DNA from: an uncultured Clostridia bacterium
Lineage (GTDB): Bacteria; Bacillota; Clostridia; Christensenellales; UBA1242
DNA: 64,000 nt
Assembly: GCA_934757845.1 (NCBI GenBank)
Contig: CAKVLQ010000001.1
Location: 8,398-72,397, forward strand
Direction: 5' to 3'
A program made the translations under genes and the position numbers. Position 1 is the stretch's first letter, and every line of letters starts with the position of its first letter. Shown piece by piece: positions 6,430 through 42,067 of this stretch. The notes beneath the pieces were generated by a model. That model ran no database searches, was not told the DNA's origin, and saw only the letters and a program-made list of their open reading frames with translations.

Positions 6430-6459
6430 TTGACAAAAAAAGACCTTATTGTTTATAAT
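6430..6459 (+). promoter_or_regulatory. Sigma-A type promoter of the first giant gene
   Basis: TTGACA (6430-6435), 18-nt spacer, TATAAT (6454-6459), about 80 nt upstream of the ATG. Confidence 0.5.
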
Positions 6460-6540: not shown

Positions 6541-9500
6541 ATGAAACTAAAAAAGATTTTAACAATTTTGATATTTTCGGTTTTATCTTTAACAGGTGTG
6601 TTTTTTGGCTGTAAAGATAAATATAAAGATTTTAAAATTTCGGTTAATGGAGAAAGTGAAATAACACTTTATTCGGGTGGAAGTCAATCTGACGATTATC
6701 CAAAATCTCAAACCGTTAGCATAAACATTGAAAATGCGCCAAACAATAATTGTCGCATTCTTTCATATTCAGTTTCACAAAACAATATTGTTACTGTTGA
6801 AGAACTAAAATCAAGCAGTGAAAATGTTAAACAATATTTAATCACCGCTCTTGATAATATTTCGGTTAACAGACCAACAACAGTTATAACTTTTAGGTCG
6901 CTTGAAGGAAACAGAGAATGCTCTTTAAAAGTTAATGTTGAAATTCCTATTCAAAGTTTAACAGTTTCAAAAAACTATACTCCTTATGCGGTTAATGATA
7001 ACAAACCTTATTACATAGATATTTCAAAGGCGTTTAATTTTATGCCTGCAAACACAACTCAACGAAATATTGAATTTGAACTTGTTGACGAAACACTTAA
7101 AGATTATGTTTCTGTTTCAAAAGAAGGTGCAATAACAATCAGCGAAAATTATTTTGACCAAGAAAAAGTTGAAAGCACTTTTCAAATTAAAGCCAAAAGT
7201 GCTGATAATGAAGCACTTCAATCAGTTACTCTTGATGTTAATGTTTTGAGAGATATAACTTTTGATGATATTACATTATCTTATGTGGTTGACGGGGTTA
7301 AAAATGCGTTTAGCGGAAAGGTTGAGAATGATAATAGCGAAATTAAATCTATTGACGAATTAATTTCTAACGGAATTAACCTTGCAAGCAACTGGGATAA
7401 CAGAAGAAATAGTGAGTTTCTTGTTGAAATTAAACAAACTTTTGGTTTAACTTTACAGCAAATTAATGTTGGGTTTGAAAGATTTAGTTTGACCAATGCT
7501 TTGATTGAACAAATGAATAATGGCGATAATCGAACGGCTAAATTCAATATTTATTCAACAAACCCTGGCAAAGATGAAATGGTTTTGGAAATTTCATATA
7601 AGCAAGTTGCTGACTATTCAAAACAAATTAAAATACCACTTAATGTTTTGGAATATCCAATTTCACTTGTTGTTAACAACAATGTGTCAAAAATAAGTTA
7701 TGATATTTTTGACTTTTACAAAACAAATTCTAAAGGCGAAGAATTTAATGTTGTTGTTGAAAAATCAGGTGCTTATGACAGAACCTTTAAAGTTGGTTTA
7801 ACTCCAGAAGATTTTGATTTGATTGAAGTTTATTATTTAGACGAAATGTTAAGTTTTGAAGATTTAACTTCACGAACTTTTAATAGTGGAACAAGATTAT
7901 TTATTAAAGCAAAAGATGTGACTGATGAAACCAAACCTATTAATATCAAATTCTATTCAAACATTCTTCAAAAAGATAATGAAGGAAACCTTGTTGTTAT
8001 AAGTGAAAATTTGGTTAAAGAAATTTCGCTTAATTTAATTCCTGGCATTAAAAGTTTAAATTTTGATGCAAATTTTGATAATGACAAATATTATCTTGAT
8101 AAAGATAGTAAGGTTGGGCTTGAAATTCCTTTTGTTGTTAATAATGGAGTAACATCACTTTCAAACTATGTTAGTCTTGAAATTGTTAAAGGTGCTAATC
8201 TTGTTGACATTGAAAAAGACGGCAATAGTTTTGTTTTGAAAGGCAAAGGCATTTGCGGAGATGTTGAGTTTTATTTGAAAAGCAATAACGGGCTTGAAAC
8301 TTCAACAAAAAAATTGTTTGTTTATTCGGGCTATAAAAAAGATGGTGAAAAATTTGAATTGATATTAAATTCAAACAACATTAAAACTGTTCAACAACAA
8401 AATAATAATGGAACTGTTGAATTAAAATATTATATTGGCACAACATTTGGAAAAAACAATGCAAATTTCAAAATTTCAAATCCACAAAAAGCAAGCATAT
8501 ACAATGTTGTTGCTCAATCAAATAATGAAGCAATTAATGTTGCTGTTTTAAACAAAGATGAACTTACATTCAGTTTGGTTGCAACCCAAAATGTTGACGA
8601 ACCTGTAACAATAAGTGTTATAATTCAAGTTTATAAAGATTTTGAAGAAATTAATAATTCAAACGAAATCTATGACGACATTGAAATCAATCCACTGTTT
8701 GAAATTAATACTTACAAACCATTAACAAGTGTAACTTTCAAAAATGGTGAATTGTCAGATAGTGTTTCTTTGATTGACGGCGAAGCCCTTGATATTGACA
8801 GTTTGGATAAAAAAATGAATATGCTTGATATTGAAAGCATGATTAATCTTGTGGGTGACACAAAAAACATTAAAGTTAAATATAATATGCCAAACTATTT
8901 GATTGAAGACGAATATGAAGCCATTTATGATAATGAAGGAAACAAAATTGGCATTAGCAACAAAGTTGTGGAAGAACATGATTATCACAGACAAAAAGCA
9001 AATGGCGTGTTTGACAAATTATATTTCCACACTGCAAAAAATCATAAGTTTGTGAACAATCAACTTGTGTTTGGAATAACCATTGAAATTTCCGATTTGG
9101 ACGGAAGCAATGAAGCATATTTATTAACTCTTAAAGTTGTTTTAAACTTGCAAGTTGAGCCAGAAGAAGTTGTTATTAAAAATGAAAATGGATATATTTA
9201 TATAAACAATACAGACCTTGATTTTGCAAAAATTGATGCTGAAGTTGTTGGCAAAAACGGAAAAGAAGCAACAAACAAAGCGTTAAGTTATGAAATTAAA
9301 GAAGGTTCAAGTGTTTCGGTTGACGAAAATGGTGTTTTAACTGCTGTTTCTGCGGGCATTACAAAAATAAGAGTTTATGCCAAAGCAAGCAAATATTCAG
9401 AAAATGGTGATTATTCAAAATATGCCGACATTTATGCGATTGTTGCTGACGGAAGCAAAAGTTATCCTTATTTGCTAACAAATGAAAATCAAATTTTAGA

Positions 9501-12500
9501 TGACAAATATTATTGTCTTGCAAATAATATTGTTTTGAACCAAACAATCACTTGCTCTATTGAAGGGCTTAATGGAAAAAATGTTTATGCAAAATATTCA
9601 ACTGCTTTAAGTGAAAATTCAGTTTATAATTTGATATTTAATGGCACTGGAAGCGTTTTTGATAAAGCAAACGAAGCCGATATAGAAAACTTAAACATTG
9701 TTTATAATCAAAATCAAATAACTATTAATTCTGATTTTGGATTAATTGCAAAAGAAAATAAAGGAACAATTAAAAATGTTAATTTGATTATTAATAACTT
9801 GCAAATTAATATTGAAGATACTAGCGATGAGAATTTTAATGTTGGTCTTATGTTTGCAACAAATTCGGGCACAATTCAAAATTGCAGTGTGGCAAGTGTG
9901 GCAAACGAAACAGCAAGTGTTGTTTTGAATAGTGTAGAAAGTGAAACAGCAAGTGTTGATTTGAAAGGAAAGAAAAAATCTTGCAACTTTGGTGGACTTG
10001 TAGCGGTTAACACGGGCGAAATTGTTGGAAACTTTAATTTCTTATCAAATAATATTTCGGGTGTTATTAACCTTAAAATTGTTGATAATATGATTGATAA
10101 TATTGTTGATGATGCGGCACAAAAACACATTCTTGGCGGACTTGTTGCACAAAACAGTGGAACAATTTTGGGAATAAAAGTTGACGCAAACATAACTTCA
10201 ACTGCAACTATTGTTGGTGGACTTGTTGGCAAGTTTGTTAGTGAGAATAACGAGAATAAAGAATATAAAAACCTATATTTCTCTGGAAATATAATTGCTA
10301 GTAATGCTGATTTTGTTGGCGGTATTGCGGGCGTTGTTGAAAGCAAAACATCATTTAATCTTGTGTTTGCTGAATTTGTTGACAGTGCGGACTATTTAGA
10401 AACTTCTAAAGCAGTTGGCGGATTGATTGGGGGAATTGCAGAAAACGCAGAAACTGATATTGCATTCTCTTATTCAAAAGGCTTTGCAACAAATGCTGAA
10501 TATAATTTGAAAGGCAACATTGTTGGCGGGCTTGTTGGTGAAACCAAAGCAGTTTTGTCATTAATGGCTGTTTATAGTGATGTTAAACTTGCTCTATATA
10601 ATGAAAATAGCGTGGGTGGGGCATTTGTTGGCAACATGAACAATGATATTGAAGTTGAAAATGCTTATTCTTATTCAACTGGCTCACAAAGTTTGATTGC
10701 AAAAAGAGAGAGTGGAAAACTTACTCTTAACAAAGTTTACTCAACAACTTGCAGTCAAAAAGAACAAAATGGCGATGAATTTAAATACTTCTATGATAAA
10801 ACAAATTATATAAATGCTATTTCACAAAAATATGAAGAAAGTGGCAAAACTGACCAATTTGTGTTTAATGATGATAAGTATTTTAGATATTCAAGTTTGG
10901 AAAATGGCGGACGACCATATTTGGTTTATAATGAGGCTGACGGTTACAAAAAACTTATGACTATTGTTAGCACAAACATTAATGCAAATTTGATTGTTAA
11001 AAACAAAGTTGGCAGTAGTGGAAACTATATTTATGGGGCAACAAATGATATTATTGTTGTTGATGACGGAGTTTTAAACAAAGCGGTTATTTATTATAAA
11101 AATAACCTTGAATTTAATATCAGCGACATTATCAACATTAATGTTACTCCTAGTGATGCTATAAAAGACTTTATAATTTCAAGTTCTAATAACGAAGTTA
11201 TATCTTTTGTTAAAAATGCTTTTGGACAAACACTTAAAATTAATGGCAAAGGAAATTGCGTTATTACAATTTCTGCAAGACATAACCAAAATATAAAAAC
11301 CTATGTTTATTTTAGCGTAATTGACCAAATTGAAAAATTCACTTTTGAAGAAAATATTACAATTTCAAACAAATCAACAAAACAAATTGATTATGAATTA
11401 ACTCAAAAAACAACTCAAAATGGTGTTATGTTTAAAATGACAGAGAATAATGATAAAATTCTTGTTAACAACATGGCATTTACTGAAAATCAAATTTTCT
11501 GCTTTGATTCAAGAATTTTAATAACTGGTCTTGATGTTTTTGAAAAAACCACCAGTATGACTGTTGCACCTTTTGTTGTGGTAAGGTTTGGAAATGAAGT
11601 TTATAATTTTGTTGACGAAACAAAACAAAAAGAAATTAAAATTAATGTTGTTAACAATGCAACAGTAATTTCAAGCACAGTAAATTATTTTGCTATTCCA
11701 GAAAATGAAACTGTAAGATTTGAAGTTTTTGTTGATAGCGGAAGTAGCAATCAAAGTCTTGAATTTGAAAGTTTAGACGGCGAAACCCTTTCGGAATATT
11801 TTGAATTTAAAGTTGAAAAACAAGAAATTGACAGCACAAAAAATCAAACTATTTTTGAAGTTACGGTTAAAGCAAACAATGTTAATCTTTCAAATGATAA
11901 ATTATTTAACATAAAAATTTCGCATAAAATTGGCGAAAATATTAACGAAAATATTTATGAAACATTAAGAATTTTGTTAAAGAGTTCAAAACTTAAAGGC
12001 GTTGAACTTAACCATTATTCTTCAACTGTTTATTATTACAACAATTATGATTTTATAATTAACAAAGAAACAACCCCAAGTTTTGTTATCACAAAAGGCA
12101 ACCTTGGTGTGCTTTCGATAAATTTATATCCAAGTTTTGCAAATATTAGAGACATTGAAATTTCAAGTTCGATAATAAACGGAAACAGGGTTAATTTTTC
12201 ACAACTTGCTTTAACTGAAAACAATGCTTTAACAGTTGTTCCACACAAAGCAAATTTATATAACGGAATTAAACTTAAAATAAGCAAAGAAGAAATTGAA
12301 AAAAATGGTGGAAACATTTATGTTTCAACATTACTATCAAGCAATGTTTTAGATGACACAATTTTCACAATAACAGTTAGTTGCTATTATGGCTTTGGTC
12401 AAAAGTATGAACCAGTAACCCTTGACCTTAAAGCAAAAGCATTAACAACAATTATTCTTTCGAATCCAAACGGAAGCGATAACTACTATGTTCCAAAGGG

Positions 12501-15500
12501 CGCAACAACCAGTTTTAACATAAATGCAATTAATATGGACGAAGATTTTAAGGTTGATTTGAGTAACTTTGAATTTTATGTTGGCGAAAATCAATTAAAA
12601 CTAACTGATTTGAAAGACGCAAGCGGACTTACATATTATGTTGACCCAGTTGGAAAATCTTTGTTTGGCTTTAAAATTGAAAATAACAAACTTGTTGTGT
12701 TTAGCGACCTAATGAACGCAAGAAACACAGCCCTTACAATTAAACCTGTTTATGAAACAAAAATAAACGGAAAAACAACCAAAAATGAAGGCGTTGAAAT
12801 TGTTGTTAAAGTTGTTGATTTCGTGGTGAACGATGTGTTTGCTGAAAATTCAGAAAGTGGCATTTTGACTAATTTCCTTGGAAATTCAACAATGCTTAAA
12901 GCCGATTTTGATGCTGACTATTGTTTGGATATTTTCTATCGTAATGAAAATGATGTGGCTATTGAAAAATATAGTTATACAAATGAAAATGGTGAAGAAA
13001 TAACTGTTTCGTTTGACACAACAAAACGACAACTTGAATTGTCAAATATAATGCTAAAAATAAAAGCACTTAAAGAGCAAATTTCAAAATCTAATTATTC
13101 TTGGAATATTATAACCAAAAATAGCACTGGAAATTTGATTTATAACAACATTAAAGACAGCACTAACTATTCAAATTTTGTTGTTAGTGTTGACGCTGAT
13201 GGATATTATAATGTTTATGGAAAAGTAATTTCTGAAAACAGAATGATGCTTAAAGTTAATTTGAGTTATGAAAATGGACTAGTAACTTTGAAACAAAATG
13301 CTGATAACGAACTTACAAGCGAATTTGTTTTGAATATAAAATCTAATTCAAGTTTGGATAATCCAATTCCTATTTCAACAAGCGAAGAATTTTTAACAAA
13401 AATGGAAGACGGCGGAAATTATATTTTGTTAAACGACATAACTTTGCCTGCTTCATTTGGCGGAATTGATGCAAAAATTTTAAGTTTTGACGGAAACAAC
13501 AAAACAATTAATATCGCTGGGTTTAGTTTAAGTAGTGCTAATCAAACAAGCCTTGGATTGTTTAACACTATAGACGAAAATGCTATTGTTAAAAATGTTA
13601 CAATAAACATTTTGCCAACTTTGTTTTATGCAGATGAATATCATTATGGTTTGAATGTAAACGCACAAGCGTGTGAAAACCTAAATTTTGGTGTTCTTTG
13701 CGGAACAAACGAAGGTGTTATAACAAATTGTAAAATTATAAATAACAACTATAAACTTGTTAATAATGAAAATGTTTATAAAGAAATTTATATAAATGTT
13801 AACGCTGTTGAAGATAGCAACATAAATGTTGGTGCTTTGGTTGGTGAAAACAATGGTTATATCACTCATTCAAGTGTTGGTGATAATAATTCAAATAGCC
13901 GTATTGCAATAATGTCAAAAGCCGTTATTGGTGGGCTTTGTGCAGTTAACAACAACAAAATTGCTTCAAGTTTTGTTGTTAATATTGCAATTTATAACAA
14001 CTCAAAAACCAAAATCACAGCAGGTTTTGTTGCCACAAACAGTAACAATTCTCAAATTACAACAAGTTATGTTCAAGGTTATGCAGACAAACCAAATGAA
14101 GTTAAAACAAGTTTAACTGATGGCGGAATTTTTGCAAATGGTTATGTTGGCGGATTTGTTGCAACAAATGACGGAAAAATTAAAGATTGTTATGCAAATT
14201 TGCAAATAACAACAAACAAGCGTTCAAGTGGGTTTGTTTATGACAATTCAAACGGAAATGTTGAAACTTCAATTTCGGCTTCAACCGCTTCAAACTCAAC
14301 TCAAAGTTTTAGATATTTTATTGGAAACAATGAAGAAAACATTGTTTTAAACAATCAAGGAGTTAAATATTGCTATTATATTGCTGGCGAAGATAAAAAC
14401 GGCGGAGAAGGCGAATATGATGAACCTGCAAACGCAATTTCATCATTTGATGATGCAAGTTTTTATGAAGGCTTTATTTGCGATGGGTCGTCAAGTTCGG
14501 TTTGGGAATTTAACAAAAATTCTATGCCAAAACCAGTTGACGCAAACCAAAAAATTGTTAGCGAACGAAAACTTTTGAATGCTGCGAACTCAAAAACAAC
14601 TGAAAAATATGAATATATATATATTAATAATGATATAGGTAGTATAAATAATCCTATTATCGTTAGCACAACTGAACAATTTTTTGAAGCACTAACAAGT
14701 GAAAATAATTTGTATAGTTATTATTATGCTGGAAAAGTTCAAAAAACACAAATTAACTATAAACACATAAGCGTGGTTAAAGACCTTGATTTGTCAAAAA
14801 TTATTGACAAAAATAATAACGAAATTAATACAACAAATGAAGTTCAAAAATTGCAAGACATTATTTTTGCGGGAAATTTGAACGGAAATGGAATGTTGTT
14901 TGAAAACATAACAATAACCGCCAAAAACGACAAAGTTAAATATTCGTCTTTTGGGCTATTCAAACAAATTGGTGTTGAAGCAACTTATAATTCTAGGGGC
15001 GAAATTAAAAATAGTTATCTTGATAGTGATAATTGCTCGGTTATTAAAAATGTTAATTTTGAAATTGACGGAATTTCGGCAACTATAACAAGAAATGTTG
15101 GAACATTGTCGGGCGAAGTTATAAATTCAAAACTTTATAATATTAACATTTACAGCAACAATAATGTTAGCGTTGAAGGCAACAACATTGTTGGTGGCGT
15201 TGCAGGAAGAATTAGCGGAAACAGTTTTGTTAAAGGTGTTTCAAGCAATTTGGGTGTTAAAGCAACATTTGAAAACAAAACAACTAATTATGAATATAAT
15301 GCACCACAAAGTGCAAAAGTTTATGCTAACGCAAGTGGCATTATTCAAGACGATTTGAACCAAAATGTTAACATTGTTGGTGGATTGTTTGGCGTTGTTG
15401 ATATTTACACAACCAAAATTGAAAATTTTGTTCAAAAAGCAGGAACAAATTCTTATTATGTTGATGCAAAAATTGTGAGAAGTAACGATTTTGTTGAAAC

Positions 15501-25647: not shown

Positions 25648-25664
25648 AGCAAACAAAAAAAACA

Positions 25665-25706
25665 ATTTGTGCCTTGCAAAAAGAAATTTTATGCAAGGCC
25701 ACAAAT
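25665..25706 (+). terminator. Candidate terminator hairpin after giant gene 1
   Basis: atttgtgccttgca (25665-25678) pairs with tgcaaggccacaaat (25692-25706) with one bulged C. The following T run is weak (ggtttt). Confidence 0.4.
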
Positions 25707-25709
25707 GGT

Positions 25710-25738
25710 TTTAAAAAACTAAAAAAAATTGATATAAT
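25710..25738 (+). promoter_or_regulatory. Extended -10 promoter of giant gene 2
   Basis: TGaTATAAT (TG at 25730-25731, hexamer at 25733-25738) with a weak -35 tttaaa (25710-25715). This leaves a leader of about 185 nt. Confidence 0.4.
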
Positions 25739-25923
25739 ATTAAAAACCATGCAAATGGGCGTAAAACAAACTTACTTTTCTTGTTTTGAAAATTAAAAAT
25801 GTATCAATTAATTACAAATATACTAAACAATAAAACTAAATGAAAAATAAAAAACATTAAAACAAAAATATACAAATTATATGCAAAAAAAGACAAAATT
25901 AGCAAAAACTAATAGGAGAAATT

Positions 25924-28900: not shown

Positions 28901-31900
28901 ATGAAGATGACGAAAATGATTTTGTTAATAGGCTTAACAAAAATTATGTTTTGACAAATGACATTGATTTAAGTTTTGAAACGGTAGTGCCAATCGGGGT
29001 TTATACTTTAAAAATCAAATCAGGAAACCTTGAAAGAAAAGTTAAAGAATTTACTGGAAGTTTGAACGGAAAATTTGAAATTGGTGGCATTTCAAACAAC
29101 TATTCTATTAATGGAATAAGTTTGAAAATTAATTCTAGTTATAAATCAAGTTTGATAAATAATAATATGTATCTTGGCTTGGTTGCACAAAACAAAGGTA
29201 AAATTTTAAACTTGACACTAAATTATTCAAGTGTTCAAGCAATTGTTTCGAGATATGCAAATCCAGCCAATTATCAAAGTGAAAATCAAAAACTTGCTTT
29301 ATATTTTGGTGGAATTAGTGCACAAAATAATGGATTAATTGAAAATTGTGAAGTTAACTTGAACAATTTTAATATTGAAACATATTTTGGAAACAACTTT
29401 GTTGGCGCAATTGCTGGATTAAATGAAAGCGAAATAAACGAAAAGAGCGAAGTTGTTAATAAAGCACAAATAAAAAATTGTTATGCTCTTGGAAATATGA
29501 ATATTGTTGACGGATATGCAAATATTCTAAACAAAAATTCAGCAGTTAGTATTCTTTTTGGTGGACTTGCCGGTCAAAACGCAGAAAAAAGCGAAATTTT
29601 GGGCGATTTTAAAATTTATAATAACAATAGCGAAATATTTAACAAAAACATAATGAATGTTACACTAAATCTTTCTTCAATAGTTGACGGGAGTTTGGCA
29701 AAACTAGCAAACAATAGTGCTTTTGGGCTTGCTTGCGGACAAAATAACGGAATTATTAAAAATATTTCTTCTTATGGAAAGATTTTTGCAAGTTTAAATG
29801 CTGGCGGAATTTGTGGAATAAACAACGGCACTGTTGGTGGTGAAAAAGAAGACGGCTGTTTTAGTGCAAGTTTGATTTCTGGTGGCATAAATGTTGGCGG
29901 ATTGATTGGACAAAATGGAGAAAACGGCATAACTAAATATAATGCGGTTATGCTTTTGGACGACAACGAGTTTTTGGAAGAAAATTCAAAAACATATAAA
30001 ATTATTGGAAATGAATTTGTTGGCGGATTGATTGGAAAAATCAATGAGAAAAACACAGCAAATAATTTTGAAAACAACTTTGTAAGAAGTTATGTTAAAA
30101 AATATGATAAATATTTTGATATTGGCGTTAAAAAAGATAATTTTGGTCCACTTTGGACAGGAGATAATTTAAAAGATAGTCAAGACTGTGTTATTAATTC
30201 AAACTTTGCCGATAATCTTTTGATTGAATTTGGAGAAAGTCAAAGCAACAAATTGTTTAAAGGCAATATAAAAGGCGATATAGAAAATATTGGCATTGAT
30301 GCACCAGACAAAATTGAAGTTAAAATTAATAACAGCACTTTAACTGGCGAAGAAATGCTTTATTCTTATAACAAATTTATAAAAGCAAATGATAACACTA
30401 TTGTTTTGTATTATTATAAAAATAGTGACTATGCAAAATATAACTATTATTTGCAAAACTTATTATTTAAAATAAGTTATACTAAAAAAAATGGTAATAA
30501 TTATGATGGTATTCCTTTCACAAAAATTGAAAGTTTAACGCCTGACATTTTGACAGTTGATGCAAAAGGAAATTTTGTGGTTAACAAAACAGGTGATGCA
30601 AAACTTTTGATTTATAGTGCATTAAACAAAGACGCAAGCCAAGAAATTGCTATAAAGGTTGTTGATTTGATTGAAAACTTTGGTGTTTTTGAAGACGGAC
30701 TTTTAGACAAAAAAATTGAAACAATTTATGTTGAAAAAGGCACAAGCAAAAATGTTTATTTATCCGAAAGTGTGGTTCAAGAAGATTTGTTTGTTAAATA
30801 TACAATAACTGGAAATAGTGGCAAAGTTATTGAAATTAACACAAATGATAGTGAATACTATTCGGTTTTGAATGGACAAGTGTTTAAAGGTTTTGAAAGA
30901 GGAAATGTTGTTGTTAAAGCCGAATTATTTGTAAAAATTAATGGAAAATATTACAAAATTTTGGGTGAATATTCATTTAATGTTGTGGTTATTGAAGGGT
31001 TGAAAGAATTTTCAACAAGCATTGAAAGAGCAGAACTTGCTTCAACATCATTTGTTAACTTTGAAGCGACTGCTGTTACAGATTTGGCTAGCAACACAAA
31101 TATTGCAGTTAAGCAAAAAGTTGAGTTAGACGAAAAATGGGAAGACGGCGAATATTTGGATTTTGAATTTGAAAAAGTAATTGCGTCTTATGGCTTTAAA
31201 CTTTTGTTTAAAGTAAAACCTTCTTTAAACAAAGAATTATTAAAACAAATTTATGGAAAAACTATTTTGTTTGATATTTATTTGTATGACGATTTGGTTA
31301 GTTTAAAAGATATTGAACAAAATCCTGAAAAATATGATAACTATAAAAAAACAATAGAATTTATTATTAATGAAAATGGCGTTATTAATGCTGAAATGCA
31401 ATATTTTGCTGACGGCGAAGTTGTTAAAAACGAAGATGGTCAAGATGTTATTAACACAAACGAACTTGAAAGCGAATTTATAAAAATTGGCAAAATTGGA
31501 ATTTTGAAAATAAATTTGTATCCAAAAGAAATTTTGGCAAAAGAAAATAGTGTGGTTTTGACTTATCAAAATAGTGATAACTATAATTTGAATTTCCAAC
31601 AAGTTGAAAAAACAAGTGATGGTTATCAAGATGTTAACACATCAAAATTAACCACAAATGGAATTATTCTTGACAATCAATATTTAACTAGCGACCCAAA
31701 TGAACAATATTTGTATGTTAAACTTTTAACTGATAGCCCAATAAAAGAAGACAGCAAGTTTGTGTTAAATTTGAATATTTCGGGTTTTGACTATGAGTTT
31801 GAAAAAGTTTTGACTAGCACACTTGCTTCAAATCTTGAAATTGCTTTTGATGGAGCGGTGCTAAATGCACAAGGCTCGCTTGAAGGAGTTTATGCAAAAG

Positions 31901-34900
31901 GAGCATCAACAAGCCAAATTATAACTCTTACTGTTAACAGATTAACAGATTATGTTCCAAATGTTGTTGTTGATGTTTCAAATCTAAATCAAGCAAACTT
32001 TGTTGAAATATTGCCTGTTGAAGACCCAGTTATGATAGGAAAAAACAGCAAACGATATAGTTATATTATTAATGGGCTTAACTATTCGGGTGAAAATGAA
32101 AGCGTTGAGTTATATTTCTTTATTGAAAAAACCGTTAATGGAAAAATTGAAAAATACAATTCAAACAAACTAAAACTTAATGTAACCGATTTTGTTGTGA
32201 AAGACATAAGCGTTGAAAAAGTTGAAAATGGATATTTAACCAAACCATTTGGAACAAGTTATCCACTTAAAGTTTCACTTGGCACAATTAATAACGGAAG
32301 TGTTGAAGTTTTGAATTTGATTAATGCGTTTGAAGAAGATTTAGCAAAGAGTTCAACTGTGGCAAACGGAAAAATTGTTTCTAATATTTTTGTTTATAAC
32401 AATCAAAAATTGTATGCAGGAATGGAAACTACTAATTTCAAAATTGAAAAAAATAATTATTTTGAAATTAATCCAAATGTGGCAAGCCGAACTTCGGGTT
32501 TTGTTGCAGACTTTGCAATAAGTTATAATTATAGTGACGGAAATGATTATTATCCTGTTAAATTAATAAAAGATTATAAAAATCAAAACGACATTTTTAT
32601 AAATGGAAACCTTTATAGCGTGCGTTTTGTTCAAAACTTTGGAACGGATTTCTATATTCAAAACGACATTAACAATCCAATTCCTGTTTATAGCAGTGAA
32701 GAATTTGTTAATATGGAACAAAATGGAAACTACATTTTGATGAATGATATTGTTTTGGCACAAAACACTGATGTTGAACTTCTTAAAAATGGCTACACTC
32801 CATTTGTTGCAAATTTTGATAGCCTTGACGGAAATGGATATAAAGTTATAATAAAAAATCTTAATGTTGATTTATCAAACACTTTGGAAGAATATAACTT
32901 TGGATTGTTTAGCGAAGTTAGCGAAAATTGTTTGATAAAAAATTTGACCGTTAAATTTGATCTTCAAAATATTTCAACCGAAAGTAACTTTGTTGAAGAC
33001 TATAACATTTTGAATTTTGAAAATGTTTCAAGTTTAACTTTTGGTTCAATTTGTGCTGTTAACAAAGGTTTAATTTATAACTGTTTTGTTGAAAGTTTAA
33101 AAAATGGTTATCAAGAAGATTTGTTCTATGTTGTTGTTCAAAATATTGTGAATGATGCTCAAACAAGGGCAGTTATTGGTGGCTTTGTTGGAAAAAATGA
33201 AGGAATTATAACAAATTCAAGAACCGAACTTAAACTTTGTGCAAGCAAAGGATTTGTTGGCGGTTTTGCTGGTGAAAACAACGGAACAATAAGTTCATGT
33301 TATTTTAAAAATGTTATTGTTAAAAACTTGGGTGAAGATGAAAACACTTCAAGTTTGGCAGGTTTCGTTCACAACAACACAGGAACTATTAAATTTAGTT
33401 TTGTTGAGGGTGATTCAAGATTTGTTGACAGTGGCAGATATTTGTGTAACACAACGCTGTCAAATTATGCTTTAACTGCTCCAACTTCTGTTGGCGGATT
33501 TGTGTTTAATAACTCTGGAAATATTGAAGATTGCTACTCAAATTTAAGTTTAACAAGTCAAAGTTATTCTGGTGGATTTGCATTCACAAACTCTGGAAAA
33601 ATTTTAAGATGTTATGCTGCAACGCTAAATGAAAAAGAAAACAATATTGCTCATGCACCTTTTATTGCAACAAAAGTTCAAATTGACGAAGAATTTATGA
33701 AAACAAATGTTAAAGATTGTTTCTATCTTAACATAAATAAAACTTTGGTTAACGATGCTTATTGCAAAGGTTTGAGCCTTGAGAATATGAATGATGAATA
33801 TTATTTAACAAACTTCATATTTGACGGCAACGATAGTGTGTGGGCGTTTAGGGGGCAAAATTTGCTTCCAACTTTGGTTGAAGCAACAAATGTTGCCGTA
33901 AGCAAGCGTTCACTTTATAGCGTAACAGAAAGCCCTAACGGCGGAATTTTATATTCTTATGTTTATAACAATAATTGTTATGCGGGAAGCAAAATAAATC
34001 CAATTATTGTTTCAAATGAAGAAGAATTTATTGAATACTTTACTTCTCAAAACAAAACAAACAGTCAATATTATAGGTTAATAAACAACATTAATTTTAG
34101 TGATTATGCGGTTATTCCAACCTATAACTATACTTTTAGTGGAAGATTTGACGGAAATGGACTTGAAATTTCAAATGTTAGAATTTCAGCACCTTCAAAT
34201 TATTCAGGTGATAGTTTTGGATTGTTTGCTAAAATTGAAAAATACAAAAATGGTGAAACTCCGATTGTTAAAAACATTAACATAAAACCTTTGGAAGTTT
34301 ATGCAAACAACGCAAGTTTTGTTGGAACTTTGGCGGGAATTGTTAAAGACGCAAACATTGTTAATATTAATGTTGATGCGCAAGATGTTATTGTTCAAGG
34401 ACGAAATATTGTTGGTGGTGTTGTTGGGCTACTTTGTGGAAACTCTAATATGGTTAATGTTTCAAGCAATGTTTCGGCAAACTCAAACTTTTCAAGTTCG
34501 GCTACTAGTGGATATTATTTGTATTATTCAAATAACGGGGAAGCACAAAATGCAAATAGCGTTTCTTATGCGGGCTCAATTTGCGGTGTTGTTGACACCG
34601 AAAAAACAAGCACCAACAATGAAACTTCACGAAATATTGAAGTAAAAGTAGGCACAAAATCTATTGCTTGGTTTGCAGGCCTTGCGTTTGGTCTTGTTTG
34701 TGAAGATTCGGGAATAGATAATGTTAAAGTTTATGTTAACAATTCAAGTTATATAAACTCAACTTATGCCGGTGGATATATTTGCGGTGAAAATCGTGGA
34801 TATATTTCAAGAGCCGAAACGATAAACGAAGGCTACGGCGGGGCAAGTTTGTTCAAAAATAATTGCAAATTTGCAGGCGGAATAGTTGGATTTAATAACA

Positions 34901-37900
34901 ACGGAACTATCGTAAATTCGTTAAGCAATGTTGCCGTTATTGGAAATTCAAAAACAATAGTGGCGGGCGGAATTGTTGGCGTTTCAGTTGGCGGAGCAAT
35001 AAGCAGTTGCGTTGCAACAAACAGCGTTTATGCTTCAAGTGTTGTTGGCGGAATTTGCGGAATGACAGCAAGACGAGAAATGTTTACAACTTCAAATCAA
35101 CAATTTAGAATTTTGAACTTATTTGAAAATGATAACGCACTTTCATCTTCGGCTATAAAAACAAACAATATAATGTATATTGCAAATTGTGTTGCAATAA
35201 ATAACTTTAACGATGATGTTTTGAGTTATCTTGATAGTAATAATGAGGGACATTATGTTGGGGCAATTATTGGTGCTGTTCAAAACACACAAAATAACGA
35301 AAGTGGAACCATTGATGTTGCAAAAAAGATAAGTTATATAACTTATGAAAATTATTATAAAAAGCAATCTTATAAAAAAGATGGTGAAACTTTTGACCTT
35401 CAAGATTATGCAGTAAACAACATAAGTGATTTTGATGTGGGAACGCAATCTAAAAACACAAAATCAGAAAATTCTTGTGCGGAAGCATTTGACAGTTTAA
35501 AATCAAATATGTTTAGTAATTTTAGCAAGAGTGTGTTTGATTTTGATGGAGAAATCTCTGAAAGTAATCTTCCAAAACTTAAATCTGCAAACAACATTAA
35601 CACCAAAAAACTTGAAGGAAGCGGAACTTATGCTGACCCTTACAGGATAAATTCTGTTAGAGCGATAAATGAACTTTCAAGCCTTGTTGAAAATGGTGCG
35701 ACTGATGTTTATGTTAATGTAACCGAAAATATTGAAGCAACAGGAAAAGAATTTAATTCTATCGGTTCTTCTGTTCACAAATTTAATGGAACATTTAATG
35801 GAAACAATTATTTTATTAATGGTTTAACTTACTTTAATGTAGACAAATATAACACAAAAAATTATTTTGGACTTTTTGGCTATGTTTCAAATTTGTCAAC
35901 AATAAGAAACCTTAATGTTGTGGCTAACTTTGTTATAAATTTTGTTCAGCCACAAAATAACAATTCAAGCATAACATCAACAGGAATAATTGCAGGCTAT
36001 AACGAAGGATATATTGCAAATTGCAACACTTATGGTGGAATGATTTGCTCGTTAAAAGATTCGTCAAACAAAATGTCTATTGCTTATGTTGGTGCTATTT
36101 GTGGAATAAATGCGGGTCAAACCCAAGCGGGTCTATTGAATTGCAAAAACTATGCAACAATTTATATTTCAATTAGCGATGTTGAAAATAGCAATAGCCT
36201 TAAAGAAAATGTTAGTTTTTATGCAGGCTTTATAAGCGGGGCAAATTTGAATGGTGCAATTATAAACAAATGTGAAAACCTTGCAACAAAAAATATTGAC
36301 CTAAACAAAGGGGCAATAAGTGGAAGCGAAAATTATACGCTTATTGTTATTAACAAAAAGAGTTCAACTTGCAAAAATTATGTTGGAACTCTTGCGGGAT
36401 TTGTTTCTGATATTAACAATGTGTATGGCGATAATGCAAATCATGAAAATATTTATGAATTAAGCTATCACAGTATTGAGACACCCACAAATCCAACAGA
36501 CCCTACTGATCCAACGGAACCTACCGAACCAACACAACCAACATTAACGTTGACATTTGATGTCGATTCTCAACAGCTTGTTAATGATGTGATTTATGGT
36601 AAAAAAGGTGATGTTGTTGCTTTGCCAACAATTAATGCTGGAGAATATGGGTTAACTGGGTATATTGTGGAATATTGGTATTTAGAACCAACTTTTAAAA
36701 CAAAAGTAGAATTCCCATATAAACTTACAAGCGATACTATCCTTTATGGATATTGGACTTATAAGCCACACGATTCAATTGATGAAGGGTTTTATAAATA
36801 TTTAGACAAATTTAATAAACATTCTTCATCAAATATTATTACAATAAACTCTCGTGAAGAATTGATTGGGTGGACTGAATATATAATGTTTAAAGATGTA
36901 ACCGAATCAATTAGTGATGAGTATAAAATTAAAGTTACATATTTAAATAACCAAACAAAAGAGAATTGGTCTGCGGAATTTACCACTGTTTGGGATATTA
37001 AAAGAAATGCGGAAGACTTATTTCACAATTCTACATACTGGTATTGGTGTCAGGATTATGTAAAAATTTATGTTAAAGATAGTGATAGCTATATAAACAA
37101 TTTGGCAAAAGTTAATGTAAGCACTGATGGCGATGATACAACTGTAACATCTACATATTCACAATTAAATTATGCCCTTGAGTATAAGGCAAGCAAATCA
37201 AGAGAAGATAACTATGATGATTTTAAAATAAACAATCTTCCAAGTTCAAAGGAAATAAGGGTTTCATCATCAACTCAATTAGTTTATGCTCTTGAACATG
37301 GTCTAAAACCAATTTGCGAAGCTGGAACCACTGCGGAAACAGTTTATAACAAAGCAAAAGCAATTTTAAGAAGCATTTGCAATGATACCATGTCCGATTA
37401 TCAAAAACTTTATGCAATCTATGATTGGCTTGTTTCAAATGTTCAATATGAACATGGGGCTTTTGGTGATGACATTAATATAAGCGATTGGGGGAGATAT
37501 CAAGAATGGTTTGCTGAAGGTGCTCTTATTAATGGCAAAGCGGTGTGTGACGGATATAGCAAAGCAGCTATAGTTTTGGCTAAAATTGAGGGGATTCCCA
37601 TAATTCGAGCAATAGGAAATAAACATGCTTGGAATAAGGTTTATATTAATGGCAACTGGTATGTTTTTGACGCAACGCACGGAGATTTTGTTGCATCATA
37701 TTCAAAAGATGGAACTAGTTATAAATCTGAAATGCTTTCACACACTGAATTTTTAACCACAGAAGAATATAAAATATCTTGTGGTTATACAGATGTGAGA
37801 CATACAGAAATTGAATGTAAAACCAAATATGATTTTTATTCTAATGCAAAATTTAGTTATGGAACTTATAATTTTGATTTAAAAATTGACACAACAAATG

Positions 37901-38106
37901 ATTTTAATGGATTAATTAATTATGTAAATTATTATTCACTAGTTAATAAACAATTTATTATTGAATTTGTTGTTGCGGGAAGTTACACTCTCCAAAATGT
38001 CACAGATAAAATAATTACGCTTGATGGCTATAGTTATTATATTTATTTTTCTAAAAAAGAAGTTAATGGCTATACAAGATATAGTTTATTATTGTTTTTT
38101 AGCTAA
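25924..38106 (+). CDS. Giant surface lipoprotein (4060 aa): Ig-like domains, GLUG-type modules, PT linker, Listeria-Bacteroides repeat, C-terminal transglutaminase-like core
   Basis: - A 12,183-nt open frame with SD aggag upstream.
- Lipoprotein signal MKLKKVILSVLIILLGLTGSLFGC, paralogous to that of gene 1.
- Acidic tether (QEQEDNQTSEEDQTDEKTDKK).
- GLUG-like repeats (FGGLAGQNAEKSEILG, VGGLIGQNGENG, IGGFVGKNEGIITNS).
- PTNPTDPTDPTEPTEPTQPT linker (36481-36540).
- GYIVEYWYLEPTFKTKVEFPYKLTSDTILYGYW repeat.
- Transglutaminase-type core GKAVCDGYS...GIPIIRAIGNKHAWNKVYINGNWYVFDATHGD. Confidence 0.85.
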   Translation: MKLKKVILSVLIILLGLTGSLFGCQVKPLELYTVVDKQEVSKISLYILSSNLGESQTGQEQEDNQTSEEDQTDEKTDKKTIFVCAKNANDMFNKGLDISFSEANIVSCTLNKAETEKAEDAYAFDIVAYRAKNVIITFETKDKKTKTVLEVEVLQDCEKIEKNIHSENFVIKGENKQLSSTIVNFYPTTTTNKNLKFKLRQDYEGKGITLSEDGFLSFDENFDASLTEFYVNITHENHETAGDNAGNFVVEDIKFDILSPVEDIVAIDSQTDPNGNFAKISSLEFATNLEGTNFNFRTIAIKKLLKDNSIENIGDSFKIEYYLKNEAEKLVSIEEVENFELTISQNGRDGQDTLVVKVVNLLYPSYFSNEYEINIVVKTYPNYITINGQKNFDEVALYDNGLSKELEIKVSESYNTNFKILSIQSDKISLKYKNGVSVQSTDIIESGTTLVLSCAEYIDFGTQNEISTQFQIISEGNDNLNVWIKVRIIKNLVDAEIYDADDNNQNDISGNDITLYKTDVSGNSTIKKYVVKSTGNVIIPDFDINVENPNVVKLESINKQEKSFSLKALTTGESLITVVFDNGLQKYFNINVYTAIKDVEVLFSDYSKTYNIGNIEQTTVENKTLTKYSIKNGTNSQLLFEAKDINGNIVYDKYVISAEYILTYSDNQQENYIAVSSADNKLYALKTTPSNEYVKVTCNITAYVYNDGNYELKTKTKEFLVEVYEPIKNIILSDEYITLYTQDSLGYEDYDKATKEITLTILPASATKIDYKNLIDKTGNEYKNIRKNFNEANVEFTPQINEKGLKLTITATKFSDNSNKQTETGTITFSIQEFNFVYTKRVTVKVMKAQSPEGISVENVSQQTNNEGKIVDYLYFNLGYDNEGIKINPKVYPISCLNTDYIFKIVSESENQDDIISFDRNENTVKPLKAGKCKLILMPKGSIKNPDEILSWKEGKIKEEKIIEIVVGDGESVPYRISSKNELMNLCEETVINEDDENDFVNRLNKNYVLTNDIDLSFETVVPIGVYTLKIKSGNLERKVKEFTGSLNGKFEIGGISNNYSINGISLKINSSYKSSLINNNMYLGLVAQNKGKILNLTLNYSSVQAIVSRYANPANYQSENQKLALYFGGISAQNNGLIENCEVNLNNFNIETYFGNNFVGAIAGLNESEINEKSEVVNKAQIKNCYALGNMNIVDGYANILNKNSAVSILFGGLAGQNAEKSEILGDFKIYNNNSEIFNKNIMNVTLNLSSIVDGSLAKLANNSAFGLACGQNNGIIKNISSYGKIFASLNAGGICGINNGTVGGEKEDGCFSASLISGGINVGGLIGQNGENGITKYNAVMLLDDNEFLEENSKTYKIIGNEFVGGLIGKINEKNTANNFENNFVRSYVKKYDKYFDIGVKKDNFGPLWTGDNLKDSQDCVINSNFADNLLIEFGESQSNKLFKGNIKGDIENIGIDAPDKIEVKINNSTLTGEEMLYSYNKFIKANDNTIVLYYYKNSDYAKYNYYLQNLLFKISYTKKNGNNYDGIPFTKIESLTPDILTVDAKGNFVVNKTGDAKLLIYSALNKDASQEIAIKVVDLIENFGVFEDGLLDKKIETIYVEKGTSKNVYLSESVVQEDLFVKYTITGNSGKVIEINTNDSEYYSVLNGQVFKGFERGNVVVKAELFVKINGKYYKILGEYSFNVVVIEGLKEFSTSIERAELASTSFVNFEATAVTDLASNTNIAVKQKVELDEKWEDGEYLDFEFEKVIASYGFKLLFKVKPSLNKELLKQIYGKTILFDIYLYDDLVSLKDIEQNPEKYDNYKKTIEFIINENGVINAEMQYFADGEVVKNEDGQDVINTNELESEFIKIGKIGILKINLYPKEILAKENSVVLTYQNSDNYNLNFQQVEKTSDGYQDVNTSKLTTNGIILDNQYLTSDPNEQYLYVKLLTDSPIKEDSKFVLNLNISGFDYEFEKVLTSTLASNLEIAFDGAVLNAQGSLEGVYAKGASTSQIITLTVNRLTDYVPNVVVDVSNLNQANFVEILPVEDPVMIGKNSKRYSYIINGLNYSGENESVELYFFIEKTVNGKIEKYNSNKLKLNVTDFVVKDISVEKVENGYLTKPFGTSYPLKVSLGTINNGSVEVLNLINAFEEDLAKSSTVANGKIVSNIFVYNNQKLYAGMETTNFKIEKNNYFEINPNVASRTSGFVADFAISYNYSDGNDYYPVKLIKDYKNQNDIFINGNLYSVRFVQNFGTDFYIQNDINNPIPVYSSEEFVNMEQNGNYILMNDIVLAQNTDVELLKNGYTPFVANFDSLDGNGYKVIIKNLNVDLSNTLEEYNFGLFSEVSENCLIKNLTVKFDLQNISTESNFVEDYNILNFENVSSLTFGSICAVNKGLIYNCFVESLKNGYQEDLFYVVVQNIVNDAQTRAVIGGFVGKNEGIITNSRTELKLCASKGFVGGFAGENNGTISSCYFKNVIVKNLGEDENTSSLAGFVHNNTGTIKFSFVEGDSRFVDSGRYLCNTTLSNYALTAPTSVGGFVFNNSGNIEDCYSNLSLTSQSYSGGFAFTNSGKILRCYAATLNEKENNIAHAPFIATKVQIDEEFMKTNVKDCFYLNINKTLVNDAYCKGLSLENMNDEYYLTNFIFDGNDSVWAFRGQNLLPTLVEATNVAVSKRSLYSVTESPNGGILYSYVYNNNCYAGSKINPIIVSNEEEFIEYFTSQNKTNSQYYRLINNINFSDYAVIPTYNYTFSGRFDGNGLEISNVRISAPSNYSGDSFGLFAKIEKYKNGETPIVKNINIKPLEVYANNASFVGTLAGIVKDANIVNINVDAQDVIVQGRNIVGGVVGLLCGNSNMVNVSSNVSANSNFSSSATSGYYLYYSNNGEAQNANSVSYAGSICGVVDTEKTSTNNETSRNIEVKVGTKSIAWFAGLAFGLVCEDSGIDNVKVYVNNSSYINSTYAGGYICGENRGYISRAETINEGYGGASLFKNNCKFAGGIVGFNNNGTIVNSLSNVAVIGNSKTIVAGGIVGVSVGGAISSCVATNSVYASSVVGGICGMTARREMFTTSNQQFRILNLFENDNALSSSAIKTNNIMYIANCVAINNFNDDVLSYLDSNNEGHYVGAIIGAVQNTQNNESGTIDVAKKISYITYENYYKKQSYKKDGETFDLQDYAVNNISDFDVGTQSKNTKSENSCAEAFDSLKSNMFSNFSKSVFDFDGEISESNLPKLKSANNINTKKLEGSGTYADPYRINSVRAINELSSLVENGATDVYVNVTENIEATGKEFNSIGSSVHKFNGTFNGNNYFINGLTYFNVDKYNTKNYFGLFGYVSNLSTIRNLNVVANFVINFVQPQNNNSSITSTGIIAGYNEGYIANCNTYGGMICSLKDSSNKMSIAYVGAICGINAGQTQAGLLNCKNYATIYISISDVENSNSLKENVSFYAGFISGANLNGAIINKCENLATKNIDLNKGAISGSENYTLIVINKKSSTCKNYVGTLAGFVSDINNVYGDNANHENIYELSYHSIETPTNPTDPTDPTEPTEPTQPTLTLTFDVDSQQLVNDVIYGKKGDVVALPTINAGEYGLTGYIVEYWYLEPTFKTKVEFPYKLTSDTILYGYWTYKPHDSIDEGFYKYLDKFNKHSSSNIITINSREELIGWTEYIMFKDVTESISDEYKIKVTYLNNQTKENWSAEFTTVWDIKRNAEDLFHNSTYWYWCQDYVKIYVKDSDSYINNLAKVNVSTDGDDTTVTSTYSQLNYALEYKASKSREDNYDDFKINNLPSSKEIRVSSSTQLVYALEHGLKPICEAGTTAETVYNKAKAILRSICNDTMSDYQKLYAIYDWLVSNVQYEHGAFGDDINISDWGRYQEWFAEGALINGKAVCDGYSKAAIVLAKIEGIPIIRAIGNKHAWNKVYINGNWYVFDATHGDFVASYSKDGTSYKSEMLSHTEFLTTEEYKISCGYTDVRHTEIECKTKYDFYSNAKFSYGTYNFDLKIDTTNDFNGLINYVNYYSLVNKQFIIEFVVAGSYTLQNVTDKIITLDGYSYYIYFSKKEVNGYTRYSLLLFFS

Positions 38107-38158: not shown

Positions 38159-38186
38159 ATGCAAAAAATTATTTTGCATTTTTTTA
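38159..38186 (+). terminator. Candidate AT-rich terminator after giant gene 2
   Basis: atgcaaaa (38159-38166) pairs with ttttgcat (38172-38179), then a T run. Confidence 0.45.
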
Positions 38187-38205: not shown

Positions 38206-38234
38206 TTGACAAGTTGATTTTTATGTGTTATTAT
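38206..38234 (+). promoter_or_regulatory. Sigma-A type extended -10 promoter of rpoB
   Basis: TTGACA (38206-38211), 17-nt spacer, TGtTATTAT (hexamer at 38229-38234). Confidence 0.55.
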
Positions 38235-42028: not shown

Positions 42029-42067
42029 TATACACCACAAAAAAATTTATTAAGAGGTAATAATTAA

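Follow-up and report, generated by a model that had tools for sequence, protein, structure and literature searches.

Which kind of protein is encoded by the two giant genes that lie immediately upstream of rpoB in an uncultured Clostridia bacterium, and what might such a pair do for its cell? The genes, which we call A and B, lie in a 64,000-nucleotide (nt) stretch of the contig CAKVLQ010000001.1 (GenBank assembly GCA_934757845.1, positions 8,398 to 72,397, forward strand), hereafter the window, and an earlier note had singled them out as paired lipoprotein genes with a possible role in surface adhesion, attack or host interaction. We found that the two products are paralogous, that both begin with a lipobox, that both contain β-helix modules of the GLUG type, and that the pair is conserved beside rpoB. 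A role in surface adhesion or host interaction, inferred from these features, is their most plausible reading, and we put at roughly 0.55 the probability that A and B are lipid-tethered fibrillar adhesins that attach the cell to a partner or host.

Both open reading frames (ORFs) end in a single TAA and have no in-frame TGA, and the longest ORF that competes with them in the region has 156 codons. At a guanine-plus-cytosine (GC) content of ~29%, about 8% of random codons are expected to be stops; the stop-free lengths of A and B, which together make up 31.3 kb of coding sequence, therefore cannot be due to chance. An independent Logan assembly (run ERR7738630) holds an identical B protein of 4060 amino acids (aa), with a gene of 6368 aa upstream of it. 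The description of two giant, intact ORFs on the same strand thus stands, and the misassembly that the earlier note wished to exclude is unlikely given the identity of B in that assembly and the absence of long direct or tandem DNA repeats from 6400-38300, where only short GLUG-coding words (63-78% identity) and one perfect 27-nt duplication occur. That duplication, a tandem one inside gene A at 21844-21897 which encodes IKIETESEQ twice, is the sole exact repeat in the 31 kb, and recent slippage within the reading frame is its suggested origin. The locus is also present in a 553-kb ENA scaffold (ERZ28614050 scaffold_11), of which A and B make up 5.7%. GC content is 28-33% in A and B, 24-26% in the flanks and 31-36% in rpoBC; with this intermediate value and a conserved position, we rejected horizontal acquisition of the two genes.

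The paralogy that had been read from the two signal peptides extends well beyond them: an alignment of ~1300 aa at matching positions (A 1839-3099, B 1842-2994) shows 28% identity between the two proteins and spans a pre-core region and a core module (Table 1), and the N-terminal 240 aa are 24% identical. The motif NFYP.TT..K is conserved in the N-terminal alignment of the family, whose sequences have diverged too far for it to seed a scan.

To place the pair in a wider context we used rpoB as an anchor, which yielded 80 species-representative genomes (metagenome-assembled genomes of uncultured gut Clostridia/Christensenellales, 57-97% RpoB identity), 69 of them informative in having at least 1.7 kb upstream of rpoB. 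In 52 of these 69 genomes, the upstream sequence that is available is taken up wholly or almost wholly by a giant open frame on the plus strand. Such frames are usually longer than 3000 aa and end 250-1750 nt, mostly 250-550 nt, before rpoB. The full core module lies 200-450 aa from the C-terminus in 41 of the 52 giant genes; the other 11 (L022, L024, L026, L029, L031, L033, L034, L047, L050, L053 and L068, with more than 3000 aa visible) form a more diverged subgroup in which the module is partly or not visible in the 10 kb available, and which probably encodes much longer proteins with long C-terminal extensions. A scan with the core profile also retrieved metagenome contigs that span the whole locus. 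Their order is tilS (minus strand), an A-type gene of 4789-6446 aa, a B-type gene of 3183-3835 aa, rpoB and rpoC, the tilS homologs (45-59% identity) standing on the opposite strand just upstream of the A-type genes at L104, L105, L106, L108 and L117; on contig ERZ1643251.178 (loci L098 and L111) two cores lie 19.5 kb apart, as in the window.

Judged from this gene order, tilS, A-type, B-type and rpoB are evidently the shared and ancestral arrangement of the whole group, and the question of whether the pair is conserved upstream of rpoB in relatives is answered in the affirmative. The earlier view that the genes are wedged into the slot of rplK-rplA-rplJ-rplL does not hold: in relatives that lack a giant gene upstream of rpoB, neither rplJ nor rplL was seen there, and the place is taken by unrelated genes (helix-turn-helix (HTH), Rce1-like, ABC/FtsX, SpoIIE or MurJ-like), so we rejected an insertion into that slot. 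Further genes that separate the giant gene from rpoB, or that stand where it would be expected, were noted at L005, L007, L010, L012, L032, L052 and L025; those at L005 (8429-9592) and L007 (894-3231) are an HTH_3 protein of 388 aa and two Pfam-less genes of ~390 aa.

Sequence searches retrieved complete relatives of both proteins. With a profile of the pre-core region running on into the GLUG core, a HMMER search of 1.84 billion cluster representatives gave only 113 proteins at E ≤ 1e-3, of which 16 reach E ≤ 1e-30. The pre-core part itself is matched by no more than about a dozen of them, nearly all giant proteins, and the profile found the pre-core region of B in giant relatives only. Among these matches are four B-type proteins (P0123-P0125 and P0127, 3390-3511 aa) and one A-type protein (P0126, 6321 aa, 62% identical to the product of gene A), all with a lipobox. 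Pfam gave nothing above threshold in five orthologs that were scanned, which are thus as dark as A and B. A word-indexed search gave two matches for B aa 1800-3000 and none for A aa 4900-6368, the listed matches all being shorter than 1,600 aa, so that giant homologs may not be retrievable in this way; a metagenome scan with A aa 2221-6368 gave no match. We found no literature on giant genes in Christensenellales. At L082:1-6071 (JGI 3300038395), the gene downstream of a more distant family member is not rpoB but encodes a RecD2-like helicase; this member, P0004, has 1255 visible aa and matches the core profile at E 1.7e-80. The family therefore also has members in genomic contexts outside the rpoB-linked group.

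Both N-termini run from MKLKK through a hydrophobic stretch to FFGC in A or LFGC in B. The product of A misses the stricter Gram-positive pattern G+LPPv2 solely through the F at position -3. C24 is an invariant column of the N-terminal alignment, P0126 has the same signal as A, and the lipobox Cys is retained in all complete A-type and B-type orthologs; a lipobox is present in all of the orthologs compared with B (P0123-P0127, L011, L013, L017 and L083-L118), and at the three rpoB-linked loci where the gene start is visible the lipoprotein signal reads MKKFLVIINIFILTLCAITLTA followed by C. These features support the pair of lipoprotein signal peptides first seen by eye, and we infer that A and B are lipidated and cleaved at Cys24 in the manner of signal peptidase II substrates. 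No LPXTG motif near the C-terminus and no C-terminal hydrophobic segment or membrane anchor was found in A or B, and no Pfam match to SLH, CWB2 or choline-binding repeats in A, B or the five orthologs, in agreement with the earlier statement that the proteins carry no standard Firmicute wall anchor.

What lies beyond the signal peptides is nearly invisible to family databases. Over ~10,400 residues Pfam gave sub-threshold matches to Big_2 (in A) and Glug (in both) and one solid match, to Transglut_core in B; no Pfam or NCBIfam family exceeds its threshold in A, no NCBIfam family was found in either protein, and PDB sequence searches with the proteins or their profiles returned nothing except the transglutaminase tail. 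Neither protein can therefore be assigned as a whole to a characterised family, as had been suspected. The Glug (PF07581) scores reach 17.0 bits in A (E 0.0077) and 13.4 bits in B, below the gathering cut-off of 20.5, and full-length Pfam scans of A and B gave no Glug match at E ≤ 0.01. Coil motifs of the GGLVG type, recognised by eye and by the family hidden Markov model (HMM), number ~28 in A and 11 in B, and the internal repeats have diverged beyond the reach of BLAST and phmmer.

The relationship emerges from the family rather than from the two proteins. We aligned B aa 2234-3060 with A and 39 orthologs from related genomes; the consensus consists of two units, each of which begins with …Y.L..DI.L…F.G..DGNG..I, after which AGFVG.N.G.I..(C/S)Y coils recur. 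Eight of the 41 orthologous cores match Pfam Glug (best E 1.3e-10), and at a cut-off of E ≤ 1e-5 the core profile retrieved 154 proteins, PF07581 being annotated in most of those listed. Since both searches lead to the same family, the place of the A and B cores among GLUG modules is confirmed at the level of sequence. Many of the retrieved proteins also carry PF05342 (Peptidase_M26_N), dockerin, SLH, InlB-repeat, flagellin or type IX secretion (T9SS) sorting domains, which identifies them as extracellular proteins from many phyla.

An AF2 model of the B core (predicted local distance difference test (pLDDT) 78, predicted template-modelling score 0.81) shows periodic short strands, and by this model the core is a double right-handed β-helix. 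Its Foldseek neighbours are 3n6z (BACOVA_03286, a putative IgA1 protease; probability 1.0), the IgA1 proteases 7uvk (1.0) and 6xjb (0.94), the Lactobacillus reuteri serine-rich repeat protein (SRRP) adhesin 5nxk (0.6) and, lower in rank, generic right-handed β-helices (tailspikes, PL6 lyases, Ag43). The region before the core was modelled with less success: B aa 1790-2240, from a three-sequence alignment, reached a pLDDT of only 39.7 and was not used for a fold search, and B aa 1790-1955 gave a β-sandwich at pLDDT 55-80 only. Big_2 (PF02368) has a single match, at A aa 905-949, with 16.5 bits against a gathering score of 22.8. Of the combination of immunoglobulin-like and GLUG domains that had been proposed, the GLUG-type β-helices are thus supported, whereas the immunoglobulin-like part is supported weakly.

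The modules of the two proteins and the other features of the locus are collected in Table 1.

Table 1. Features of the window that are discussed in the text. Positions are in nt from the first letter of the window; aa ranges refer to the encoded protein.
Feature	Position	Strand	Details
spoIIID	4486-4737		sporulation regulator
tilS-like PP-loop ATPase gene	5616..6368	-	PF01171, E 5.6e-19; divergent left neighbour of the A/B pair
Sigma-70-like promoter candidate for gene A	6430..6459	+	TTGACA-18-TATAAT; 12/12, consensus match only
Gene A	6541..25647	+	6368 aa, ~697 kDa mature, isoelectric point 4.8; A-type giant lipoprotein (predicted); intact ORF
A, signal peptide with lipobox	6541..6612	+	MKLKKILTILIFSVLSLTGVFFG, then C24; fits PROSITE PS51257-type pattern
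A, first GLUG β-helix block	9496..10698	+	aa ~986-1386; core-module HMM match, GGLVG-type motifs aa 1151-1329, weak Glug match
A, pre-core conserved β-rich region, family-specific	11908..13293	+	aa ~1790-2251; aligned with B and P0001
A, conserved core module, two tandem GLUG β-helices	13294..15744	+	aa 2252-3068; HMM 545 bits
A, distal further GLUG-type β-helix modules	16378..22440	+	aa ~3280-5300; repeated weak core-HMM matches, GGxxG motifs
A, internal hydrophobic Ala/Gly-rich segment	22675..22734	+	aa 5379-5398; Kyte-Doolittle 1.76
Terminator-like GC-rich hairpin after A stop	25667..25704	+	minimum free energy -22.4 kcal/mol for 25648-25720, then TGGTTTT
Promoter-like site for gene B	25710..25738	+	TG-extended -10; consensus match only
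Gene B	25924..38106	+	4060 aa, ~450 kDa mature, isoelectric point 4.8; B-type giant lipoprotein (predicted); intact ORF
B, signal peptide with lipobox	25924..25995	+	MKLKKVILSVLIILLGLTGSLFG, then C24; fits PS51257-type and G+LPPv2 patterns
B, first GLUG β-helix block	28906..30078	+	aa ~995-1385; core-HMM matches, GGxxG motifs aa 1213-1367
B, pre-core conserved region	31291..32619	+	aa 1790-2232
B, conserved core module, double right-handed β-helix (modelled)	32620..35100	+	aa 2233-3059; HMM 730 bits
B, third β-helix module	35704..36423	+	aa ~3261-3500; core-HMM match aa 3261-3413
B, Pro/Thr-rich linker at fusion point	36484..36543	+	aa 3521-3540; 18-nt tandem repeat at 36491-36539
B, lineage-specific C-terminal cassette	36544..38103	+	Flg_new-like repeat (by eye), transglutaminase-like core, C-terminal domain
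Terminator-like AT-rich hairpin and T7 run after B stop	38159..38185	+	consensus match only
Promoter-like site for rpoB	38206..38234	+	TTGACA-17-TATTAT, TG-extended; 11/12 consensus match
rpoB-rpoC	38342..45706	+	Pfam domains; right neighbours of the A/B pair; rpoB 38342..42028, rpoC 42068..45706, both directly downstream of gene B

Conservation along the two proteins is uneven. Compared with P0126, A is 76% identical at the N-terminus, 58-73% up to aa 1800, 78-86% over aa 1800-3200, 50-61% over aa 3400-5200 and 37-44% over the last 1200 aa; within the conserved part the pre-core region reaches 78-82% and the core, the most conserved part of A, 82-86%, and the 50-61% part takes in the distal module series. 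The conservation peak of B likewise falls at aa 1800-3000, its pre-core region holding the most conserved 200-aa window against L002 (69%) and L005 (61%). Surface proteins whose tip is exposed and under selection typically show this pattern of a conserved core and a variable far end. In the comparison of the window with L002, its nearest relative, RpoB is 96.7% identical (non-synonymous distance dN 0.025, synonymous distance dS 0.71) and B 58% identical (dN 0.35, dS ~1.2, which is near saturation; dN/dS ~0.3), which makes the non-synonymous rate of B ~14 times that of RpoB. The cores from metagenome relatives cluster by position, with mean identities of 34% between A-type cores, 38% between B-type cores and 28% between the two types, indicating that the duplication predates the radiation of these relatives and that both copies have been retained; the window's own cores are too divergent for nearest-neighbour placement in this clustering.

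The far ends also differ in kind. The last part of B that is shared with orthologs is its third β-helix module, which aligns to the C-terminal ends of the L002 and L005 proteins, and the B orthologs in L002, L005 and P0123-P0127 end exactly where the Pro/Thr linker of B starts and lack the cassette behind it. On this comparison, the last 540 aa of B are read as a lineage-specific fusion. The Transglut_core domain that had been expected in this tail is present (PF01841, aa 3814-3917, nt 37363-37674, E 1.7e-10, 41.6 bits against a cut-off of 23), with Cys (VCDGY), His (HAWN) and Asp (FDAT) aligned to those of PDB 9crn_A and 3isr_A; we found no literature on 9CRN. The Listeria-Bacteroides repeat (Flg_new, PF09479) that was also expected gave no HMM match in B at E ≤ 0.01, and the resemblance at aa ~3541-3615 is by eye only.

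The hydrophobic segment of A is the only one of its kind outside the signal peptide, and P0126 has a hydrophobic segment at the aligned place despite a local identity of ~38%. The segment of A could be a stop-transfer signal, a segment active on a partner membrane, or a buried helix. An amphipathic Lys-rich stretch precedes the segment (GKAAGAGAKAALGPIGWIILCVDVATAAS), the two together covering 22540-22734 (aa ~5330-5398).

Expression signals were seen around both genes. An AGGAG lies 6-9 nt upstream of each ATG, and the promoter, Shine-Dalgarno and terminator calls for A, B and rpoB are consensus matches, which are no proof of function. In the metagenome contigs, the B-type gene begins 10-25 nt after the A-type gene or overlaps it, and this close spacing suggests that the two genes form an operon in relatives. 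The claim that each gene has its own Shine-Dalgarno sequence and promoter is therefore supported in its first half only, the promoters being consensus matches and the relatives pointing to joint transcription.

The context of the organism makes attachment to a partner cell, or to the surface of a host, the role with the best support. The same synteny is found at two loci of Candidatus Caccovivens (L037 and L070), which is GTDB genus UBA11517 of the family UBA1242, order Christensenellales (PMC8035907). UBA1242 genomes measure 0.67-1.6 Mb, are without amino-acid, nucleotide and lipid biosynthesis and standard transporters, and unexpectedly retain sporulation genes (PMC12306168). Their bearers have been proposed to be obligate symbionts or parasites that draw metabolites from other cells, in a study that mentions no giant genes and names no candidate structure for metabolite uptake (PMC12306168). 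Giant surface proteins recur in reduced-genome ectosymbionts (PMC10266531). From the shared gene order we take the window genome to be a putative member of UBA1242; the bacterium probably has a reduced genome, and the spoIIID gene of the window agrees with the reported retention of sporulation genes (PMC12306168).

As adhesins, A and B would be exported by the Sec system, lipid-modified at the conserved Cys24, cleaved by signal peptidase II and tethered by the lipid to the outer face of the cytoplasmic membrane. The membrane-proximal ~1000 aa of β-sandwich-like domains could form a stalk through the wall, followed by a chain of right-handed GLUG β-helix rods, as modelling predicts for the core, and the successive rods would make up a fibril with an estimated length of tens to hundreds of nanometres. 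In both proteins the conserved core of ~1300 aa stands at a fixed distance, ~1800-3100 aa, from the anchor; it may serve assembly and possibly the pairing of A with B. The distal part evolves fast and its length varies, and the far end may set ligand specificity or escape antibodies or phages; the transglutaminase-like domain of B, a putative cysteine protease or cross-linking domain, would be a recent addition to the tip in this lineage only. Long surface fibrils of this kind would give a bacterium with a probably reduced genome a hold on host mucus, on a particle or on the cell of a partner.

Several observations weigh against this reading. No ligand-binding domain of known specificity was recognised in A or B, 17 of the 69 related genomes have no giant gene upstream of rpoB, and the window RpoB is only 57-64% identical to that of most genomes sharing the synteny. 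The Foldseek E-values for the B core are weak (1.4e-3 or worse, with probability 1.0 for the IgA1-protease helices), and the immunoglobulin-like stalk depends on the sub-threshold Big_2 match and a low-confidence model. The topology of A would differ from the one proposed if aa 5379-5398 were a stop-transfer signal, and a structural coat would account just as well for a surface protein that evolves fast.

A more far-reaching form of the adhesin hypothesis, which we consider speculative and on balance doubtful, is that A and B serve a lineage of Clostridia with an obligately episymbiotic or parasitic life (UBA1242-like Christensenellales) as an organelle dedicated to attachment to the partner; the paralogs would pair through their cores, the tips would set host range and the hydrophobic segment of A would engage the partner membrane for metabolites. 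If this were true, Firmicutes would have an equivalent of the giant surface proteins known from DPANN archaea and from reduced-genome ultrasmall bacteria.

Among the alternatives to adhesion, the one that survives best, and which we nevertheless regard as rather unlikely, is a structural surface coat: a lipid-tethered protective or shape-giving layer that would substitute for an S-layer and be conserved for envelope integrity. A pair kept at one locus beside housekeeping genes, with a strong consensus promoter before A and no SLH or other S-layer gene seen in the window, would suit such a layer, and A and B are acidic and fast-evolving, as S-layer proteins are. However, S-layer proteins are usually of 40-200 kDa and self-assemble into lattices, whereas β-helix rods of 4000-6400 aa with a hypervariable tip and a variable length (3183-6446 aa) suit fibrils better; the match of the N-terminal profile to the surface-layer protein 4uid_A, at E 0.27, is very weak and not significant.

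Less probable again is that A and B carry effectors or enzymes in a contact-dependent manner, with catalytic tips or glycan- or wall-degrading β-helices that attack or feed on neighbouring cells. The intact Cys-His-Asp triad behind the Pro/Thr linker at the far end of B would fit such a carrier, and C-terminal regions are the most variable ones here as they are in polymorphic toxins; however, the transglutaminase tail is absent from all five closer B orthologs and from more distant ones, so that the protease-like effector domain, which had been taken as part of the apparatus, lies outside the conserved system. Of the hallmarks of polymorphic toxins or contact-dependent inhibition, no pre-toxin domain, immunity gene or enzymatic tail in orthologs was found at this locus, B following A and rpoB following B after a terminator-like hairpin. 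The Foldseek β-helix neighbours include enzymes (tailspike depolymerases, PL6 lyases, GH55), but with probabilities of at most 0.35 except for the GH55 glucanase 5m5z_A (0.80), and with a root-mean-square deviation of ~20 Å; apart from the tail, ~10,000 aa hold no HExxH motif and no match to another catalytic family. An attacking or feeding role has been proposed for the giant proteins of predatory Omnitrophota, and a preprint on giant genes ties such proteins to the degradation of cell walls (10.1101/2023.11.21.568195).

We give little credence to an immune-evasion factor related to IgA1 proteases, whose GLUG helices would bind host immunoglobulin A (IgA). It is suggested by the nearest solved folds, which are GLUG β-helices of Gram-positive IgA1 proteases, by the PF05342 domain that often accompanies matches to the core profile, and by the gut source of the genome. 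Yet no HExxH motif occurs in A or B, and Pfam and NCBIfam scans matched no peptidase family, including M26, in either, for which reason we rejected the idea that they are M26 proteases themselves; the corresponding helix in the IgA1 protease of Streptococcus pneumoniae gates the active site and does not act alone (PMC7695701), and GLUG modules occur in many bacteria and archaea that are not host-associated.

Finally, although the source is a metagenome scaffold, we dismiss a chimeric or collapsed assembly or decaying pseudogenes as an explanation, given 31.3 kb free of stops at 29% GC, the absence of long repeats, the identical protein in an independent assembly, colinear orthologs in dozens of genomes and a dN/dS of ~0.3, below 1.

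Some further features of the window stand apart from the pair. Near spoIIID lie acpP (3988-4218), an M23 peptidase gene (3352-3915) and a DUF1779 gene (2806-3291). The genes rpoC and rpsL are usually close neighbours; here six genes lie between them (45928-50396), including two ORFs without a family match (45928-46392 and 46627-47121), a HicB-like antitoxin ORF (~47201-47524) and two divergent GT4 glycosyltransferase genes, 47695-48918 (minus strand) and 48999-50396 (plus strand). A serine recombinase gene (56883-58409, minus strand) overlaps an HTH gene (58393-58740, minus strand); a second HTH gene (61035-61454, plus strand) is accompanied by several ORFs without a Pfam match, and a tRNA-Asn gene (62208-62282, minus strand) lies near the end of the block. 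The GC skew becomes negative at 56-60 kb, and 56883-62282 may be a small integrated element beside the tRNA gene.

For UBA1242, a recently described family in which the acquisition of metabolites by the cells is an open question (PMC12306168), a pair of ~7,000-10,400 aa in total beside rpoBC, found also in a UBA1242 genus, is a concrete and testable candidate for a contact apparatus. The fixed site beside rpoB is a simple marker by which the pair can be found in new assemblies, and the fast-evolving tip could act as a marker of strain or host range.

How do A and B compare with known systems? With the GLUG β-helix domains (PF07581; 6xjb and 7uvk of the S. pneumoniae and Gemella IgA1 metalloproteases, and 3n6z) they share the repeat signature …GGLVG.N.G.I.NC…, the module opening Y.L..DIDL…F.G.FDGNG..I and a predicted right-handed β-helix in an extracellular protein. 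Unlike these, they have no M26 peptidase domain or HExxH motif, carry about ten or more helices per chain instead of one, appear to be anchored by a lipid and not by LPXTG or a membrane helix, and score under the Pfam Glug threshold in the window. The tail of B belongs by its above-threshold HMM match and aligned Cys, His and Asp with the transglutaminase-like cysteine protease superfamily (PF01841; 9crn, 3isr), but here the domain is fused through a Pro/Thr linker to the tip of a 3500-aa rod and, in the family of B, is confined to this lineage.

Ebh/Embp of staphylococci are giant fibrillar adhesins, and Gram-positive adhesins of this kind are anchored at the C-terminus by sortase or a transmembrane segment. 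Like Ebh/Embp and SRRPs such as that of L. reuteri (5nxk), A and B are very large, acidic and built as modular, β-rich rods, and the binding region of the SRRP is a β-solenoid that is among the fold neighbours of the B core (probability 0.6). Those adhesins differ in having highly repetitive DNA, whereas the modules of A and B have diverged too far for DNA repeats to remain; in addition, the predicted anchor of A and B is an N-terminal lipid, and the two are paralogs kept adjacent at a fixed chromosomal site. A layout of N-terminal lipid, many diverged GLUG β-helices and a core at a fixed distance from the anchor is unusual for a bacterium of the Gram-positive type.

The giants of reduced-genome ectosymbionts, the nanohaloarchaeal 'SPEARE'-type proteins of 8,880-9,409 aa (PMC10266531) and those of Omnitrophota (10.1101/2023.11.21.568195), resemble A and B in that several percent of a small genome is spent on one or two proteins, and they are thought to mediate contact with a partner, the role proposed here. 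They are unrelated in sequence, come from another domain or phylum, and have transmembrane regions and ATPase (VirB4-like or SecA-like) domains, of which A and B have none; for UBA1242, symbiosis is a proposal. The GLUG type of β-helix module, giant fibrillar surface proteins and giants in reduced-genome ectosymbionts (PMC10266531; 10.1101/2023.11.21.568195) are thus already known. What is new is a Pfam-dark family without a characterised member, the prediction that proteins so large are lipid-anchored at the N-terminus in a lineage of Clostridia, a retained pair of paralogs fixed between tilS and rpoB across many genera, and the association of this pair with a group some of whose members are gut bacteria with reduced genomes and a putatively symbiotic life.

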